Shown: positions 4,603-10,353 of the stretch, piece after piece
How the letters are laid out: every line of letters begins with the position of its first letter
How positions within the stretch are numbered: the stretch's first letter is position 1
Source of the DNA: a virus
DNA: 25,402 nt
Direction: 5' to 3' (one strand)
UHGV virus genome: UHGV-1747320
The notes under the pieces: model-generated
Database searches by the model: none
Told to the model about the DNA's origin: nothing
The model's input: the letters and a program-made list of their open reading frames with translations, nothing else
Made by a program: the position numbers and the translations under genes

Positions 4603-5253
4603 TTACGCTTTGAAAGCATCAGCTAGATAATTGTAGAAATCATTCTTGATAAAGCGATATTGCTGCGTACCAGCTTTGGCGCTTCCCATTCCTTTGACTT
4701 TCTCAACAAGTCCAAGACGTTCGCAAAGATTGATCAACTGGTTGGCTTGAGTATAGCCAGCGTCCAATTTAATCTCACACGCTTTTTTAGCTTCATTCAT
4801 TAAATCGAAAACAGCGCCATTAGTGAACGTGTCGATCTCGTCGTTAATCATATCGATTAAAGCAAATACACGAGATCCTGACATATCAGCGACGGAATAA
4901 GTGCATTTGCCAGATTTAATTGATTTAACCAGATAAACCAGTTTTTCCAGAGAATAACTATTAGTCATTGCATCACGGAAAAATACTTCTGGCGCTTGTT
5001 TGCTTGCTTTAATCGCATAGTAGAAAACAGAGCATAATTTTTCGTCTTCTACAGCGTTTACAACGTTGTTGGTGAAGTAAGCAAGTTTAGTGGTCGCAGC
5101 TTGCATATTTGCTTTGTCTGCTTTGGTGTGCGTACCATTTTTATAATGTTCGTTATATGTTTGAGTTGCCAGATCTGCTTTTTCGCGCAGCTCGTCGGAT
5201 ACAATAGATGCAGCTTCAATGATGGACTTTTTAGAAATGATAATGTTAGCCAT
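4603..5253 (-). CDS. Hypothetical protein (216 aa); C-terminal region may be a helix-turn-helix or winged-helix
   Basis: ATG at 5253 (minus) with AAGGA RBS; sigma70-like promoter upstream; codon usage consistent with the phage core. Confidence 0.7.
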   Translation of the reverse strand: MANIIISKKSIIEAASIVSDELREKADLATQTYNEHYKNGTHTKADKANMQAATTKLAYFTNNVVNAVEDEKLCSVFYYAIKASKQAPEVFFRDAMTNSYSLEKLVYLVKSIKSGKCTYSVADMSGSRVFALIDMINDEIDTFTNGAVFDLMNEAKKACEIKLDAGYTQANQLINLCERLGLVEKVKGMGSAKAGTQQYRFIKNDFYNYLADAFKA

Positions 5254-5311
5254 GATTTCAATCCTTAGTATAAAATTTAATTGTCGTTAGCGATTTCGCT
5301 TTCGATGAGTC

Positions 5312-5350
5312 CAATTATCGATATGAGAAAAAAGATTGCAAGCGTTTTTT
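5312..5350 (-). promoter_or_regulatory. Sigma70-like promoter for the 4603..5253 gene (-35 TTGCAA, 17-bp spacer, -10 ATAATT on the minus strand)
   Basis: Read on the minus strand as TTGCAA-N17-ATAATT about 60 nt upstream of the start; a 13-nt poly-T run lies just beyond (about 5348-5360). Confidence 0.45.
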
Positions 5351-5493
5351 AATTTTTTTTTTTTTTTGCAGGGCGAAAGTCCTAGAAATAAATACGAGAT
5401 CGTCGAAGGTGTTCCCTAAATAAATAATCGATTCCGACTTTAGACCTTATATATTTATACGGGGTAGAATTGAAAGAGTATAAAATGAATGGC

Positions 5494-5527
5494 GTGTAAA
5501 ATAATAACCGGACTTAGCCGGTTATTA
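5494..5527 (-). terminator. Rho-independent terminator for the upstream leftward operon (stem TAATAACCGG/CCGGTTATTA)
   Basis: 10-bp inverted repeat 5502-5511/5518-5527; the minus strand reads hairpin then TTTTAC. Confidence 0.6.
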
Positions 5528-5540
5528 CCCTTATAGGAAT

Positions 5541-5840
5541 TTACATCTTTTTTGCATAGTTCCTGATTTCTTTTATTATATATTCCTGAAAACGCTCCGA
5601 GTTTTCGCATTTGTCTTTTGAAGACTCATCAAGTCCCAACTTGCATCCCGCAACGATCAGTCCATCTTGATATGCAGCGCCTAAAGCCATGCTTAGGTCT
5701 AACATGCACAAATCGTAGTCTTCCGCCTTTGAACACAACTCTGTAGAGACACGTTGCACTCGTTCAATGCTATTTTCTTGAGAAAATGCGGAAGAGCTAA
5801 AAATGAAAGTTAAGAATGTGAATGCTGCTACAGTTTTCAT
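5541..5840 (-). CDS. Small secreted protein with N-terminal signal peptide and four conserved Cys (99 aa); paralog of 5916..6212
   Basis: N-terminus MKTVAAFTFLTFIFSSSAFSQ is signal-peptide-like; AGGAT RBS; shares the pattern C-x8-C-M-x2-L-S-x-A ... C ... C-E with the neighbouring gene. Confidence 0.65.
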   Translation of the reverse strand: MKTVAAFTFLTFIFSSSAFSQENSIERVQRVSTELCSKAEDYDLCMLDLSMALGAAYQDGLIVAGCKLGLDESSKDKCENSERFQEYIIKEIRNYAKKM

Positions 5841-5849
5841 ATCAATATC

Positions 5850-5908
5850 CTAAAACGGTAAAATTCGGTCAACCAAATCGAAGAAAACAAGAATTTTTCT
5901 GCCGTCTT
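5850..5908. repeat. Copy B of an about 58-bp direct repeat; the second copy at 6215-6274 encodes the C-terminus of the 187-aa protein
   Basis: Sequence GGTAAAATTCGGTCAACCAAATCGAAGAAAACAAGAATTTTTCTGCCGTCTT differs by about 2 mismatches from 6223-6274. In copy B the reading frame still spells ...DGRKILVFFDLVDRILPF-stop, a gene 3-prime remnant. Confidence 0.7.
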
Positions 5909-5915
5909 CATACAT

Positions 5916-6212
5916 TTATCGGACTGACTCTACAGCCTTACGATTGGTGTCAAAAAGCGTATCAACGAACAGCAATGAAGAGTTGTTCAATTCACATGGT
6001 TCATAATTTTCCACCTGTTCACATAGTTGAGCGGTCTTACCTATGTTTATCCCTAGTTTTACTGCTGCTGAAAGTTGAAACATGCAAACTGGAATATTCT
6101 GAGACGTTGAGCATACGTCATGCATCAGCGACTTAATAATTGCAATATCATCCTTTGCATTGGCTGAAATTGAGTAAACTAAAAATAATGATGTCAATAG
6201 TATCGATTTCAT
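5916..6212 (-). CDS. Small secreted protein with signal peptide and four conserved Cys (98 aa); paralog of 5541..5840
   Basis: N-terminus MKSILLTSLFLVYSISANA; weak RBS; conserved Cys spacing shared with the paralog. Confidence 0.6.
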   Translation of the reverse strand: MKSILLTSLFLVYSISANAKDDIAIIKSLMHDVCSTSQNIPVCMFQLSAAVKLGINIGKTAQLCEQVENYEPCELNNSSLLFVDTLFDTNRKAVESVR

Positions 6213-6214
6213 AA

Positions 6215-6274
6215 CTCAAAAAGGTAAAATTCGTTCAACCCAATCGAAGAAAACAAGAATTTTTCTGCCGTCTT
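6215..6274. repeat. Copy A of the about 58-bp direct repeat (overlaps the stop and last about 19 codons of 6216..6779)
   Basis: See 5850-5908. Confidence 0.7.
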
Positions 6275-6779
6275 TCAACTTAAGTGTGACTAGGCAGGCA
6301 TCAACGCCATCTGACGTTCCCTCAATTTCGCGGCCGTCTGCCATGTAGACCCTTATAGATTGGCCGTTTTGATAAGCCTTGCGACATATCTTAAAAAAAT
6401 CACGACGTGATGGCTGGTTGTCTACATAGTCAGGGTGTATTGTTAGTCTCCCTTTGAAATCGTAATCAATGCCATCAATTACGCCTGATTCAATTGTGCT
6501 AATGCGCTCAAGTGGGAGCCTTATACGATTTTCTTTGTCAAATGGAGTTGGACAAAGGTCAACTTTGTTACGAGATGACATGAGACCATAAACGTACATG
6601 CAAAACACTTGGCCGTCTTCGAGAGTGACTCTTACAGGAAATTTAGCCCTCCGCCAGAAGAGCAAGGTGCGTTCAGCATGTTCGTAGTCTCGCGGCCATA
6701 CTTCAGCCGGTATGCCGTAGGTGATATCTTTCGTCGTCATATCATTATAAAGTGGTTGGCAATATGTCCATTGTACCAT
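6216..6779 (-). CDS. Hypothetical protein (187 aa; possible alternative start at 6740)
   Basis: Long ORF without recognisable catalytic motifs; the C-terminal stretch SIRVYMADGREIEG...LVTLKLKDGRKILVFFDWVERI looks beta-rich; no clear SD for either start. Confidence 0.55.
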   Translation of the reverse strand: MVQWTYCQPLYNDMTTKDITYGIPAEVWPRDYEHAERTLLFWRRAKFPVRVTLEDGQVFCMYVYGLMSSRNKVDLCPTPFDKENRIRLPLERISTIESGVIDGIDYDFKGRLTIHPDYVDNQPSRRDFFKICRKAYQNGQSIRVYMADGREIEGTSDGVDACLVTLKLKDGRKILVFFDWVERILPF

Positions 6780-7164
6780 CCCAGGTAGTGAAAACCCGAT
6801 ATGTTTTCGAATCGCCCTGCTTTAGCTTTATTTCTCGTTCCATCCTGGAGGGGTTAAATGCGCAAAGACCTGAACTTTCAATTGATGTCCCAACGATCCA
6901 CTCTCCTTCGTTAAGGTAGAAAGTTGCTTTTTCACCAGGTTCTAGCTTTGCAGCCGTTTCTCCATTGATGAAAATGGAAGCGTTACATGCAGAACCAACC
7001 AGCCCTTTGTCTCGAACTATTGTTAGACTAGACTCATGTGGTGTTTGATATTTAAATATTCTGCTTTGAGGTGCATCCTTTGCCTTTGAAATAGATATAG
7101 ACGAAGACGAACACCCAATTAGTGACGTGGTTAGCATTAGAATCATTAAGTTTTTTGCTTTCAT
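6745..7164 (-). CDS. Putative lipoprotein (139 aa) with lipobox L-I-G-C
   Basis: N-terminus MKAKNLMILMLTTSLIGCSSS: hydrophobic signal followed by a lipobox Cys; AT-rich codon usage. Confidence 0.65.
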   Translation of the reverse strand: MKAKNLMILMLTTSLIGCSSSSISISKAKDAPQSRIFKYQTPHESSLTIVRDKGLVGSACNASIFINGETAAKLEPGEKATFYLNEGEWIVGTSIESSGLCAFNPSRMEREIKLKQGDSKTYRVFTTWDGTMDILPTTL

Positions 7165-7191
7165 ATTTGATTGACTATGATTAGTGAGTGG

Positions 7192-7740
7192 TTACATGCT
7201 ATTCTGAGTTCTGTTGTAAATATCTTTTAAGAGGTCATCTCTTTTTATGTTTTTACAGACTTTGTCGAAACTTAATTCACCTGATGATATGCAGTTGTTG
7301 TATTTTTCGATAAAATTTTTTAATGCCAGATGATTTTTGAAAAGAAAAGAAAAACCATAGGGTGACGTGCTATCTCTTATCCATTTCCGAGCACTGGGAT
7401 AAGTGTATAAATTTGAATGCAACTCCAATTTTCCAGGGGCCACGCCATCACAGGAGTCCATAATAGCGAACATTTTTGATATATCAAAAGGATAAAAGAC
7501 TACTCCGCAATTTGTCCTGGTGCCTTCAATATCTTTCACGTATATATAGTGTTCATAACGATCTTTACGTGAAGTCTTTAACCTGTATTGTATTAGTTTG
7601 TGCTCTTCTTTTTGAGAAGAAGTTAGGTGTCTAGGGTTTTCTAAGCAAGATTTCTGTTTATTTTTTTTATGATAAAAATCCACACAGTCCTTTATTTCCT
7701 TTGCACTTAAAAATCTCTTATCAAAAGGTAAGTGACCCAT
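7192..7740 (-). CDS. Hypothetical protein (182 aa), AT-rich, no recognised domain
   Basis: ATG at 7740 (minus) with GGAGG 5 nt upstream; Lys/Asn/Tyr-rich composition. Confidence 0.6.
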   Translation of the reverse strand: MGHLPFDKRFLSAKEIKDCVDFYHKKNKQKSCLENPRHLTSSQKEEHKLIQYRLKTSRKDRYEHYIYVKDIEGTRTNCGVVFYPFDISKMFAIMDSCDGVAPGKLELHSNLYTYPSARKWIRDSTSPYGFSFLFKNHLALKNFIEKYNNCISSGELSFDKVCKNIKRDDLLKDIYNRTQNSM

Positions 7741-7844
7741 TCATGCCTCCGGTTCTAAACATAGGTAAGCCTACAAATATCGTTCAGCCAATCAAGATCT
7801 TTTTTCAGCCGGAGGTATATGTTTCAAAAAACGTGACGAATGTC

Positions 7845-7874
7845 ACATGCAGGTGCTCTCATACACCTGCATGT
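7845..7874 (-). terminator. Perfect 11-bp stem hairpin (ACATGCAGGTG / CACCTGCATGT) just downstream of the 7881..8447 stop; terminator or attenuator candidate
   Basis: Inverted repeat 7845-7855/7864-7874 with an 8-nt loop; on the minus strand a T-run follows about 13 nt later. Confidence 0.45.
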
Positions 7875-7880
7875 AGACTA

Positions 7881-8447
7881 TTAATCATTCAATAATCTAT
7901 ATTTTCTTTTGATTAAATCTTCACCTTTTTTGGTGAACACAAAACCAAATTGCGATTTTTTGTTTAGACGAAGGACTCTATTATCCAACGCATCGGTTGA
8001 TGGAATCAATGTTTGATCATCTATCCAATTAAGTAGCGTAAGAAAGTTCAGCAGCCTCAACGTTGTTGTGCGAAGCTCTTTCGATATATTTTCAATGCTG
8101 GCAATTCGTCTTTCTTTTTTCTCAGGTGGTACAGATAATTGTTCTTGAGATTTCGTGGATAGATAATCAATTTCGTTTGCTGCATCGAATGATATGTGAG
8201 GCGTAATTTTGCTAAAAAAGCCTTTCGCTGACTCACTTGATAATAAACCAGATCTATTCATATCGTTTGTTATTCTGTACAGGAGTGGACTGTGTTTCAT
8301 TTCAGGATAACGTTGATAAAAGTTAAGCAATTCAAAAGCAGCATTAGCACCAACAAGAAAATCAGAAGGATCGCTGACTTTCCAGAACGAATGATTTTTC
8401 TTAGCGCCAGTGGTGTCAACAAATGATAATTCTTTTAACCAACTCAT
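7881..8447 (-). CDS. Hypothetical protein (about 188 aa), AT-rich, no recognised domain
   Basis: Track ORF 7881..8480; ATG at 8447 is preferred because AAGGAG is 6 nt upstream. The start region lies inside an 11-bp-stem hairpin. Confidence 0.6.
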   Translation of the reverse strand: MSWLKELSFVDTTGAKKNHSFWKVSDPSDFLVGANAAFELLNFYQRYPEMKHSPLLYRITNDMNRSGLLSSESAKGFFSKITPHISFDAANEIDYLSTKSQEQLSVPPEKKERRIASIENISKELRTTTLRLLNFLTLLNWIDDQTLIPSTDALDNRVLRLNKKSQFGFVFTKKGEDLIKRKYRLLND

Positions 8448-8480
8448 GATGTGCTCCTTTCTAACAAGTGAGCACATCAT
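8446..8480 (-). promoter_or_regulatory. Hairpin sequestering the RBS and start codon of the 7881..8447 gene (arms ATGATGTGCTC / GAGCACATCAT)
   Basis: Perfect 11-bp inverted repeat 8446-8456/8470-8480 with a 13-nt loop; in the mRNA the AAGGAG SD and the AUG fall in the loop edge and 3-prime arm. Confidence 0.5.
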
Positions 8481-8512
8481 AGAATTAGTATATAGGGGGT
8501 AAATATGAAATG

Positions 8513-8791
8513 TTACGGCAACCTGCTCAGTATTTCCTCTAGATCTTTTTTTGTCATATTGGAGTTTTCATAGATGCGCATGATTTTCTCACGCGTCTTA
8601 GCGGAAACCCCAACGGCAGATGTAACTTTGTCAAATTCAGCCATAGTCATCGTCTCCAGAATGGCATTGATAACTTCAGCCTTAGACATCTTGATTTTTT
8701 TCTCTTTGAGTTTTATTTGAAATTTTCCAAGTTTTTCATTGGCCTTATCAGACAATGCCACTTGGCAATAAGTTGTTTTCTTTTCGCTCAT
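8513..8791 (-). CDS. Small protein (92 aa), possibly ribbon-helix-helix-like DNA-binding; translationally coupled to the helicase
   Basis: ATG at 8791 lies 2 nt after the helicase stop (8794-8796). The fold guess is from a strand-helix-helix-like pattern (TYCQVAL ... SKAEVINAILET) only. Confidence 0.55.
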   Translation of the reverse strand: MSEKKTTYCQVALSDKANEKLGKFQIKLKEKKIKMSKAEVINAILETMTMAEFDKVTSAVGVSAKTREKIMRIYENSNMTKKDLEEILSRLP

Positions 8792-8793
8792 AA

Positions 8794-10353
8794 CTAATCT
8801 CGTTTCAGAACTCCAAAATCGAATGCGCCATCAACAGGCAATACACCTTCTGCAAAGCCAGGTGTGGTGTCGATGATGTGTTTTCGCTCATAAGAGTGAG
8901 ACAACAGGTATTTGTTGCTAATGTCAATGAAATCAGTGATAAAACACACGTTTGCCTGATTCTTCTTGGCTCGTAAGCCACGACCGACACGTTGTCTCAT
9001 TTCAACTTCTGCTTTCCCACCACCAGCAAGAATGACCGCACCAACGCTTGGCACATCAACACCGACATCCAGAATAGTCGAGCCTATTAAAACATCTATT
9101 TCTCCAGACGCTAAACTGTTCAGCTTTGCTTGCCTTGTCGCTTGGTTCGATTCCCCATAGATGAAGTCAACTCTAAGGCCGGACTCCTTCATCATCTCCA
9201 TCAGGATTTGCCCGTGGCGTTTAAGACGAACCAGAGTCATGCAATTGAGAGAATGTTGCTTATAGAGCAATGCTTCGCGCACAATGGCCTCGTTACGTCC
9301 CAAATTATACACGATCCCCAACTGATAAGCCTTTTGGTAGGCAGTGCTCATACCTACTCTAAAATTAAGGTGTTTGTTGGCAAGTTCCGCCTTGATTCTG
9401 ACCTCGTCTGGCTTGTAGGCAACTTTATGATAAAGGAAGTACGGTTTTGCCAGAATGCCTCGATCAATCAGGTACTTTTCCGTGACTTTTATTTCAATTC
9501 GCCCAGCCACTGCCATCAGACGCATGTTGGCTTCCGTAGAATCCTTCATGAACGGCGTTGCCGTAAGCGCCAGACGATAGTCTGCGTTCACACATAATCT
9601 GGCAATGTCATAGAAATTAGAACCTGAAGACTCATGCGCCTCTTCCAGAATAAGCAGAGACACACTTGAAAGGAAGCGTTTCACCAAGTCCCGACGTTTG
9701 AGGTGGTAGCTCTTCTTATCTGGAGTTGCATCGCGTGGTGGTTCTTCAAGGAAACTTGCCAGAGTTTGAACTGTTGCGACGTTGATATGTCGTGATACCT
9801 GGAACTCACCCGAGCCAATGACTCCAACCTTTTGGTCCTTTAACCACGGTTCGCCATTTTCGGCGCGGTAGTCGATGGATCTCTGGAAGTTTTCGGCCAT
9901 TTGAAACATCAGAACAGAGCGGGTTGTTAAAAATAATGTCATTCGACCGATACGTGCAGCTGCTTTGCAGGCAACGTTAGATTTCCCACCACCAGTAGCG
10001 ATCTGGGCAATCATCATTCCCTCGCGAACTAGTGTTTCCACAGCCTGATCCTGATATGCATAATCAGGATTGTATGGGAATGGGTTAACCGCCGGATTTG
10101 GCTTTCCAAGCGCCGGGGCTTTGTCTTTGCGGATATGAACACATTTGATGCCCGCCTTGTTCAAGTTCGCCGCTACAGGCTTGGCAAAGCCAGCAGGGAA
10201 CGAGTTTTTACTCCAGTTGAACATCGTGCTTGTGCCCTTCCAGTCGCCAGTCTCGACTTCGTAGCTCAACATCTGTTGCACCAGTTGCTTTACCTTGTCA
10301 TCTGCGCCAGAAATAAGCGCATTAACTGCGTTAGATACAATCCGAACAGTCAT
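8794..10353 (-). CDS. Superfamily 2 (DEAD/DEAH-type) DNA helicase (519 aa)
   Basis: Motif I ATGGGKS, motif II LILEEAHE, motif III TATP, motif VI QRVGRGLR are present in the canonical order. Confidence 0.85.
   Translation of the reverse strand: MTVRIVSNAVNALISGADDKVKQLVQQMLSYEVETGDWKGTSTMFNWSKNSFPAGFAKPVAANLNKAGIKCVHIRKDKAPALGKPNPAVNPFPYNPDYAYQDQAVETLVREGMMIAQIATGGGKSNVACKAAARIGRMTLFLTTRSVLMFQMAENFQRSIDYRAENGEPWLKDQKVGVIGSGEFQVSRHINVATVQTLASFLEEPPRDATPDKKSYHLKRRDLVKRFLSSVSLLILEEAHESSGSNFYDIARLCVNADYRLALTATPFMKDSTEANMRLMAVAGRIEIKVTEKYLIDRGILAKPYFLYHKVAYKPDEVRIKAELANKHLNFRVGMSTAYQKAYQLGIVYNLGRNEAIVREALLYKQHSLNCMTLVRLKRHGQILMEMMKESGLRVDFIYGESNQATRQAKLNSLASGEIDVLIGSTILDVGVDVPSVGAVILAGGGKAEVEMRQRVGRGLRAKKNQANVCFITDFIDISNKYLLSHSYERKHIIDTTPGFAEGVLPVDGAFDFGVLKRD

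Follow-up and report, generated by a model that had tools for sequence, protein, structure and literature searches.

The 25,402-nucleotide stretch of virus genome UHGV-1747320 analyzed here (hereafter the window) encodes, on its minus strand at 6745..7164, a lipoprotein of 139 residues plus stop that belongs to PHROG 890. The product is well supported as an exported, lipid-anchored, probably outer-membrane β-sandwich protein, and its gene as an accessory gene of the moron type. We put the probability at about 0.4 that this protein excludes phages at the level of the cell envelope without being matched to the receptor-binding domain of the element that encodes it. This reading is drawn from the embedding of homologues among tail-tip genes, the position of one homologue in a slot adjacent to cI, defense-type neighbors, cassette swapping, and a tandem duplication, together with the precedent that unrelated lipoproteins encoded within structural gene clusters exclude OmpA- and LamB-dependent phages (PMC11893012).

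Over 96% of its length, the window shared 96% identity with ~109-kb non-mobilizable Escherichia plasmids, and it was related to Salmonella phage SSU5 and to coliphages Cyrano and PhiR41_1; because of these similarities, we assign it at the sequence level to the phage-plasmids of the SSU5/pHCM2/pMT1 type. An identical lipoprotein is encoded on E. coli plasmid NZ_CP126951, and the carriers of the gene include phage-plasmids of clinical relevance from E. coli and Enterobacter, Salmonella Typhi pHCM2, and Yersinia pestis pMT1, besides many lambda-like prophages.

Export signal, family, and predicted fold

The N-terminus of the lipoprotein is MKAKNLMILMLTTSLIGCSSS, of which residues 1–17 (MKAKNLMILMLTTSLIG; 7114..7164, minus strand) were read from the sequence as a Sec-type signal peptide with two Lys residues in the n-region and an uncharged hydrophobic core. 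The predicted lipobox, L15-I16-G17-C18 (7111..7122, minus strand), satisfies the [LVI][ASTVI][GAS]C rule, and the hydrophobic signal, the lipobox L-I-G-C, and the Ser at +2 described in the original prediction agree exactly with the open reading frame (ORF) at 6745..7164 and its sequence. The PROSITE PS51257 pattern is presumably fitted as well, according to our own reading of the sequence. Cleavage by signal peptidase II would be expected before Cys18, which would then carry the lipid and form the N-terminus of the mature protein. Under the Lol sorting rule, the +2 residue of a lipoprotein decides its membrane destination, and Ser19 at this position predicts sorting to the outer membrane.

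The protein matched the PHROG 890 "lipoprotein" profile over its full length (E 7.8e-51; residues 4–139 against profile positions 2–136 of 136). A profile search with close relatives, conducted on 50%-identity cluster representatives among 1.84 billion proteins, retrieved at least 1,331 representatives at E ≤ 1e-3, nearly all of which were 135–150 aa long; the family is spread over 415 plasmid records, 347 IMG/VR contigs, and >1,300 sequence clusters, and tblastn against the phage collection found a homologue in 25 Vibrio phage records. A lipobox was present in 278 of the 289 family proteins collected. Within these 278, 244 had Ala, Ser, or Thr at +2 and 3 had Asp, which is an inner-membrane retention signal at this position, while exactly two Cys residues beyond the lipid-bearing Cys were found in 250. 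Gene-wide pairwise ratios of nonsynonymous to synonymous substitution rates (dN/dS) against relatives were 0.06–0.23, indicating purifying selection. Because of the PHROG 890 match, the size of the family, the conservation of the lipobox, and these dN/dS values, we conclude that the window ORF is a real gene and not a chance ORF. The PHROG 890 lipoprotein family is already catalogued and is functionally uncharacterized.

The NCBIfam scan of the lipoprotein gave no match and a PDB sequence profile search gave 0 matches. In a Pfam scan at E ≤ 1, the sole match was DUF2846 (PF11008), with 14.4 bits and E 0.041, below the gathering threshold of 34.3. Weak similarity to this domain recurred over the first strands in 21 of 58 relatives (best E 4e-4), suggesting that the window lipoprotein is at most a distant relative of DUF2846. 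Many DUF2846 proteins are annotated as lipoproteins. DUF2846 is a domain without known function, so the link adds no mechanism, and its mention in a CASP15 paper concerns Bd1399, which the authors reassigned to DUF4360.

An AlphaFold2 model of the protein, built on 58 diverse relatives, had a predicted local distance difference test score (pLDDT) of 87.4 and a predicted template modeling score (pTM) of 0.80. In it, the signal helix (residues 4–18, at lower confidence) is followed by a short linker, and a conserved N-terminal segment packs onto the domain, which has eight strands. According to this model, the mature part of ~121 residues (residues 18–139; 6748..7113, minus strand), which comprises the linker, the segment AK-AP--R-F-YQ, and the eight strands, is predicted with good confidence to form a compact transthyretin-like β-sandwich. 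Foldseek searches with the model found nothing at E ≤ 1e-3 against the PDB and nothing informative against viral models. A comparable known protein is TssJ, the outer-membrane lipoprotein of the type VI secretion system, which has a transthyretin-like fold.

C18, C60, C101, R51, and D52 were invariant in an alignment of 58 sequences (A2); Cys18 was also invariant in alignment A1, and Cys60 and Cys101 in both A1 and A3. The most conserved positions lay in two loops, R51-D52-K53-G54..G57-S58.C60 and G..G-L-C101, as well as at E78-K79, K120, and R123, and the window lipoprotein carries the corresponding family motifs RD-G--GS-C and G-GLC. This conservation suggests that Cys60 (6985..6987, minus strand; loop R51-D52-K53-G54-x-x-G57-S58-x-C60) and Cys101 (6862..6864, minus strand; loop G-x-G-L-C) are disulfide partners, which would fit a periplasmic location. 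The two Cys residues would tie the conserved loops into one pole of the sandwich, making this pole a putative binding site.

Rz-like spanins were matched weakly in the PHROG search (E 0.014 and 0.087), which raised the alternative that the protein is a lysis component, namely the Rz1-like o-spanin that forms the outer-membrane half of such a system. These matches span residues 4–32 and 1–23, that is, the signal peptide; the mature part is modeled as a 120-residue globular sandwich rather than a short proline-rich peptide, and the adjacent genes are not lysis genes. With the matches confined to the signal peptide, we regard the spanin reading as effectively refuted.

Homologues in temperate phages and the question of receptor matching

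Tail genes and neighboring genes were mapped by tblastn on the 80 IMG/VR loci most similar to the query. The homologue lay between K and I of lambda-like tail modules, on the same strand and one gene from J, in 43 of the 80 loci, while 22 had the SSU5-type arrangement in which the lipoprotein gene is followed by a FljA-like gene. In a further 11 loci it was located 400–490 nt upstream of the tape-measure gene and in 3 between the tape-measure gene and M, leaving 1 locus with none of these four arrangements. The K–lipoprotein–I order was also found in coliphage mEp390, in one Klebsiella N15-like plasmid, and in one prophage each of E. coli and Serratia; elsewhere, the homologue followed the tape-measure gene (HK639), stood between I and J (a Superficieibacter prophage), or followed I (Pseudomonas phage phiAH14b). 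In locus L111, it was located directly upstream of J. A wider genome scan for loci yielded 10, and a locus search with a single Pseudomonas-phage query found nothing. The original prediction had cautioned that the window gene does not stand beside a receptor-binding gene. This was borne out: starting at about 14.4 kb, the plus strand of the window is occupied up to its end by head-region genes, among them those for terminase and portal, and the tail-tip genes are about 22 kb from the homologue in the relative pHCM2 and would be about 20 kb away in the element of the window. The caveat is softened by the finding that, for most homologues in phages, J is one or two genes away.

In N15, I directly adjoins K, and in lambda and pHCM2 the two genes overlap; therefore, a homologue between K and I represents an insertion. 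Directly 3′ of the homologue and before the ribosome-binding site of I, a GC-rich hairpin with a T-run was detected in 19 of 20 nonredundant K–lipoprotein–I loci, and the hairpin sequences varied between loci. The same feature was found at the control junctions in 0 of 19 (L to K), 2 of 18 (tape-measure gene to M), 3 of 19 (M to L), and 13 of 20 cases (I to J). Promoter-like scores, which are consensus matches only, averaged 7.6 of 12 upstream of the homologues versus 6.6 at controls (Mann–Whitney p 0.0018). The K–lipoprotein–I arrangement is the classical moron layout. As in the classical lambdoid morons (Juhala/Hendrix; HK97 gp15, lambda lom, bor), a single gene is inserted between tail genes together with a terminator and promoter-like sequences upstream, and the protein is predicted to reside in the envelope. 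The window family differs from them in belonging to another protein family, and the window gene itself is placed in a multi-gene unit with the FljA-like gene instead of in a tail module. HK97 gp15 is an inner-membrane protein. The hairpins at the I-to-J junction (e.g., L099:5308-5331, annotated in N15) are an observation in their own right, as late tail operons seem to tolerate internal terminators, with antitermination presumably allowing read-through.

In the Vibrio anguillarum H20-like phage VaK, the homologue is located 15 nt downstream of a cI-like repressor gene on the same strand (L102:5308-6408), which suggests that the two genes would be co-transcribed in lysogens. The position downstream of cI is the classical slot of prophage-expressed, rexAB-type genes. 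The published VaK genome paper leaves the homologue unmentioned.

Other loci carry the homologue within larger islands in tail modules, whose further cargo includes a DEDDh exonuclease, Fic/DOC, HigBA-like proteins, other lipoproteins, and a secreted protein. Directly after the homologue at L046:13336-16010 (IMGVR_UViG_2849446820_000001), we found the Lamassu genes LmuA (E 1e-46) and LmuB (E 4e-124); here, the tail module of a siphovirus harbors Lamassu, HigBA-like, and Bro/KilAC-type genes in the interval from the tape-measure gene to M. In the prophage at locus L071, the family is represented twice between K and I, by diverged genes arranged in tandem (L071:9463-9915 and L071:10004-10423). 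Where the homologue precedes the tape-measure gene, a 136-aa protein of unknown function (PHROG 8436; L077:10408-10818) is encoded after it, with hydrophobic segments at both ends that appear membrane-spanning by eye and a CxxC...CxxC zinc-ribbon motif; this protein may be a second envelope-directed moron.

The lipoproteins Llp, Cor, and Rtp45 are the best understood means by which infected or lysogenized Gram-negative cells close the door to further phages. The original prediction had proposed, by analogy with Llp and Cor, that the window lipoprotein blocks the phage's own outer-membrane receptor. Such a plug would bind the periplasmic face of the receptor protein and alter its surface loops, so that neither the phage's own receptor-binding protein nor those of phages using the same receptor could attach. 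Several observations are in line with this proposal. The window lipoprotein is, like Llp, Cor, and Rtp45, phage-encoded with an outer-membrane-type signal, many of its homologues are encoded near the receptor-binding gene (in L111 directly upstream of it), and a role in protecting the infected or lysogenized cell is plausible for it; the known exclusion lipoproteins of this type, which are small and periplasmic, act in this way on FhuA or LptD/LptDE (PMC9586334, PMC12685063). Furthermore, cloned Lpp021 and Lpp010 of mEpimmI coliphages, which are likewise lipobox proteins from the structural cluster of temperate siphoviruses, exclude phages that use OmpA or LamB (PMC11893012). Function has been demonstrated for these two proteins, whereas the role of the window family is deduced, and a tblastn search of the phage collection with the window protein, rather than a direct sequence comparison, listed no mEp021- or mEp010-type phage.

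Sequence and fold, however, set the window lipoprotein apart. Alignment of the A2 profile by hhalign covered 20 columns of T5 Llp and 16 of N15 Cor, corresponding to the signal peptide and lipobox only. T5 Llp and N15/phi80 Cor fall into PHROG 1119, to which the window lipoprotein had no match even at E ≤ 1. As the original prediction had pointed out, the protein at 139 aa is larger than the known exclusion lipoproteins (77 aa for T5 Llp and 78 aa for N15 Cor); its mature part of ~121 aa is twice the ~60 aa of Llp and Cor, and Rtp45 is about 6 kDa. The structural comparison that had been suggested as a check yielded a different predicted fold, and Llp and Rtp45 were not among the listed structural matches of the model. 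These results show that the window lipoprotein is not a member of the Llp/Cor family.

Receptor matching was examined by a covariation test on 19 loci with complete genes from the 80 IMG/VR loci, a small sample. The identity of the lipoproteins correlated weakly with that of K, I, and the N-terminus of J (Spearman 0.23–0.28) and showed no correlation with that of the 200 C-terminal residues of J (Spearman 0.07, Mantel p 0.26). Discordant pairs were found in both directions: in three prophages, the tape-measure protein, M, L, K, I, and J were 76–96% identical and the J ends 85–98%, with lipoproteins only 46–49% identical, and in two prophages with identical lipoproteins the J ends were 71% identical. 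The divergence of the lipoprotein inside conserved tail modules looks like cassette replacement and not rapid adaptive change, because dN/dS is low. The J ends of lipoprotein-bearing prophages formed at least 13 clusters, one of which groups with the FhuA-binding J of N15. Locus L049, whose J end falls in this cluster, has a gene for a Cor homologue downstream of J (L049:15422-15649; 59% identical to N15 Cor) and, in addition, the lipoprotein between K and I, so that the two types co-occur. The invariant residues of the family are also common to chromosomal members outside phages, and the gene stands far from the tail-tip genes in the phage-plasmid. SSU5 itself is stated, in a passage of PMC12312913 that cites Kim et al. 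2014, to use the lipopolysaccharide (LPS) core as its receptor, bound through the tail fiber; on that statement, the receptor would not be maskable by a periplasm-facing lipoprotein.

Taken together, the findings speak against a plug matched to the receptor that the phage itself uses, and receptor matching was rejected on the basis of the covariation test and the clustering of the J ends; we consider such a plug an improbable function for this family. Superinfection exclusion as proposed in the original prediction retains the support of the outer-membrane signal and of the carrier-state-type contexts of the homologues, while its specific form, the plugging of the own receptor in the manner of Llp and Cor, is not supported.

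Gene neighborhood in the phage-plasmid

The minus strand of the window carries every gene from 10353 down to about 4350, in the order DEAD-box helicase, 92-aa, 199-aa, 182-aa, lipoprotein, FljA-like, and two secreted four-Cys paralogues. The FljA-like repressor gene (6216..6740, minus strand) matched Pfam PF03614 Flag1_repress over its full length (E 4.2e-80) and PHROG 1444 (E 1e-97), the latter match beginning at residue 14 of the long reading. The lipoprotein stop is 4 nt from the FljA-like ATG, and the longest FljA reading starts at 6779, overlapping the lipoprotein gene; these two genes are probably co-transcribed and translationally coupled. The lipoprotein-then-FljA order was seen in all 22 SSU5-like IMG/VR loci, with the two tblastn matches 4–23 nt apart in 22 of 22, as well as in SSU5, pMT1, and pHCM2, and a terminator-like hairpin is present 3′ of FljA in SSU5 and pMT1.

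Upstream, the 182-aa gene (7192..7740, minus strand; PHROG 31250, unknown function), which has a GGAGG ribosome-binding site, ends 27 nt before the lipoprotein ATG and appears to belong to the same putative transcription unit; it also occupies this position in the closest relatives (L014-L017). Behind the 199-aa gene, a terminator-like hairpin plus T-run (7831..7848, minus strand), detected as a consensus match only, is the likely upstream boundary of a p182–lipoprotein–FljA transcription unit. The accessory genes at 7192-7740 and 7881-8480 (both minus strand; PHROGs 31250 and 13473), both of unknown function, had no Pfam, NCBIfam, or PADLOC match; a strong hairpin with its T-run, at about 7880-7831, lies between them. 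The stretch from the helicase gene to a 216-aa gene is a variable region of the phage-plasmids, with only 57% of positions 5000-9000 aligning to the nearest phages.

Downstream of FljA, two genes encode secreted four-Cys paralogues of 98 aa (5916-6212, minus strand) and 99 aa (5541-5840, minus strand), both with signal-peptide-like N-termini (BLASTP, 27% identity, E 2e-5; PHROGs 9536 and 27673, unknown function). A gene of the 98-aa type comes after FljA in several related elements, and the two paralogues possibly share an envelope-directed cassette with the lipoprotein. In phage Cyrano, the slot beside FljA is occupied by the gene of a 266-aa lipoprotein in opposite orientation (L001:7174-7974); this protein has Asp at +2 and was rejected as a family member because its sequence is unrelated. 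The slot beside the FljA-like gene seems to collect envelope proteins. The pHCM2 antigens HCM2.0043 and HCM2.0069c, identified by in-vivo antigen screening, could not be mapped to the lipoprotein and are probably other genes, judging by position and strand.

Among plasmid records, the FljA-like gene was found in 831 versus 415 for the lipoprotein gene, and among Klebsiella plasmid records in 341 versus 52, with the SSU5-type plasmids of Klebsiella mostly lacking the lipoprotein. The Klebsiella lipoprotein records that were sampled are ~54–70 kb plasmids, one of which, when examined, proved to be an N15-like element. In SSU5-type plasmids, the lipoprotein gene was present in roughly half of the records. 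Because of the difference in record numbers and the Klebsiella SSU5-type plasmids that mostly do without it, the lipoprotein gene is an optional accessory gene placed before a core regulator-like gene.

These distributions bear on the idea that the lipoprotein and the FljA-like protein jointly target flagella or motility, for instance through the loss of a flagellar receptor or antigen. Such a partnership would account for the fact that the FljA-like gene always directly follows the lipoprotein gene in those SSU5-type elements that have it. However, Klebsiella SSU5-type plasmids keep FljA alone, and for the homologues of lambda-like, Vibrio, and Pseudomonas phages, no FljA match was found in the flanks or annotation examined. 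Klebsiella and Y. pestis are, moreover, classically non-motile, which makes flagellin repression doubtful in these hosts, and we consider a joint function in motility very unlikely. Since these hosts are non-motile, the FljA-like protein of phage-plasmids may regulate something besides flagellin, perhaps the element itself; no literature linking fljA to SSU5 or to phage-plasmids was found.

Proposed role and relation to known systems

We propose that the phage-plasmid makes a small envelope lipoprotein while it resides in the cell, and that this protein is not part of the virion. Expression in the lysogenic or plasmid state is probable because of the placement in the FljA unit, the insertion between K and I, the own terminator and promoter-like signals of homologues, and the cI-adjacent slot; such carrier-state contexts are what a superinfection-exclusion factor needs. 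The lipoprotein would be situated on the periplasmic face of the outer membrane, stabilized by the Cys60–Cys101 disulfide, and its conserved loop pole would bind a conserved envelope component, the target of the family probably being a conserved bacterial one. The carrier cell would thereby be protected from incoming phages, either by a block of adsorption or, equally likely, by a block of the passage of the tail tip or DNA through the periplasm.

A more specific and more tentative version, to which we give little weight at present, is that the family would represent a new class of prophage-encoded exclusion factor in the envelope. Anchored in the inner leaflet of the outer membrane, it would plug no particular receptor and would instead block a step that all lambda-type tail tips (M-L-K-I-J with the tape measure) go through, for example the transit of the tape-measure or tail-tip proteins, or of the K cell-wall peptidase, across the periplasm; alternatively, it would bind a conserved envelope machine on which all of them depend. 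The set of tail-tip genes is the same in lambda-like prophages and SSU5-type phage-plasmids, and a common step would explain why the family travels with tail-tip modules, why it is independent of the J ends, and why it is shared by lambda-like and SSU5-type elements.

Several findings weigh against the exclusion reading. The lipidation, outer-membrane sorting, disulfide, topology, and expression timing of the lipoprotein are predictions. In the consensus scan and the view of the sequence, neither a recognizable Shine–Dalgarno sequence nor an own terminator was seen at the window lipoprotein gene. The lipoprotein had no match in the PADLOC search, and the pairwise dN/dS range of 0.06–0.23 gave no gene-wide signal of positive selection. 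No functional work on any family member, including SSU5_122, the pMT1 and pHCM2 orthologues, and mEp390 gp17, was found in the searchable literature. Morons in tail modules and next to cI also include virulence factors such as lom and bor. Finally, the family reaches beyond phages: distant members retain the lipobox, both Cys residues, and the motifs, and some of them are stand-alone chromosomal genes in ordinary neighborhoods, while one is located at the edge of an integrated element and another on a Xanthomonas conjugative plasmid beside a type III secretion system effector gene. The sequence evidence indicates a family of bacterial envelope lipoproteins captured repeatedly by temperate siphoviruses. 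Because of the chromosomal members and the key residues shared by phage and non-phage members, the ancestral role appears to be cellular, and the phage copies may simply supply that role.

A function of benefit to the host is the next most likely role after exclusion, and in itself a possible but less probable one. The protein would then be a lysogenic-conversion lipoprotein comparable in role to Bor/Iss or TraT that provides or enhances the cellular function of the chromosomal members, for example tolerance of envelope stress or resistance to serum, bile, or antimicrobial peptides, and so makes the carrier fitter in the gut or host. The many stand-alone chromosomal members, the copy on the plasmid of a plant pathogen, the shared residues, and purifying selection are all in keeping with it, as are the cassette with secreted proteins and a FljA-like gene in the window and the frequency of the element family in pathogens (Y. 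pestis pMT1, S. Typhi pHCM2). On the other hand, no similarity to Bor was detected (no Pfam Lambda_Bor match at E ≤ 1), the repeated embedding among siphovirus tail-tip genes beside defense cargo would be unneeded for a general fitness factor, and the swapping of alleles and the tandem duplicate better fit a diversification of specificity.

To our knowledge, all characterized exclusion lipoproteins are tiny and matched to one receptor. The window family differs from them in being larger, in having another predicted fold, and in being very widespread. The comparative pattern is clean, and nothing in it is as yet surprising for a temperate element. If the family serves the host as a fitness factor, its genes would count among the common lysogenic-conversion genes of enteric pathogens. 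If it excludes phages, it would add to the exclusion-lipoprotein theme a new variant that differs in fold, size, and specificity logic; exclusion of phages regardless of their receptor-binding domain would constitute a new exclusion mechanism and, in practice, an obstacle to, or a marker for, phage therapy against strains that carry SSU5-type elements or lambda-like prophages.

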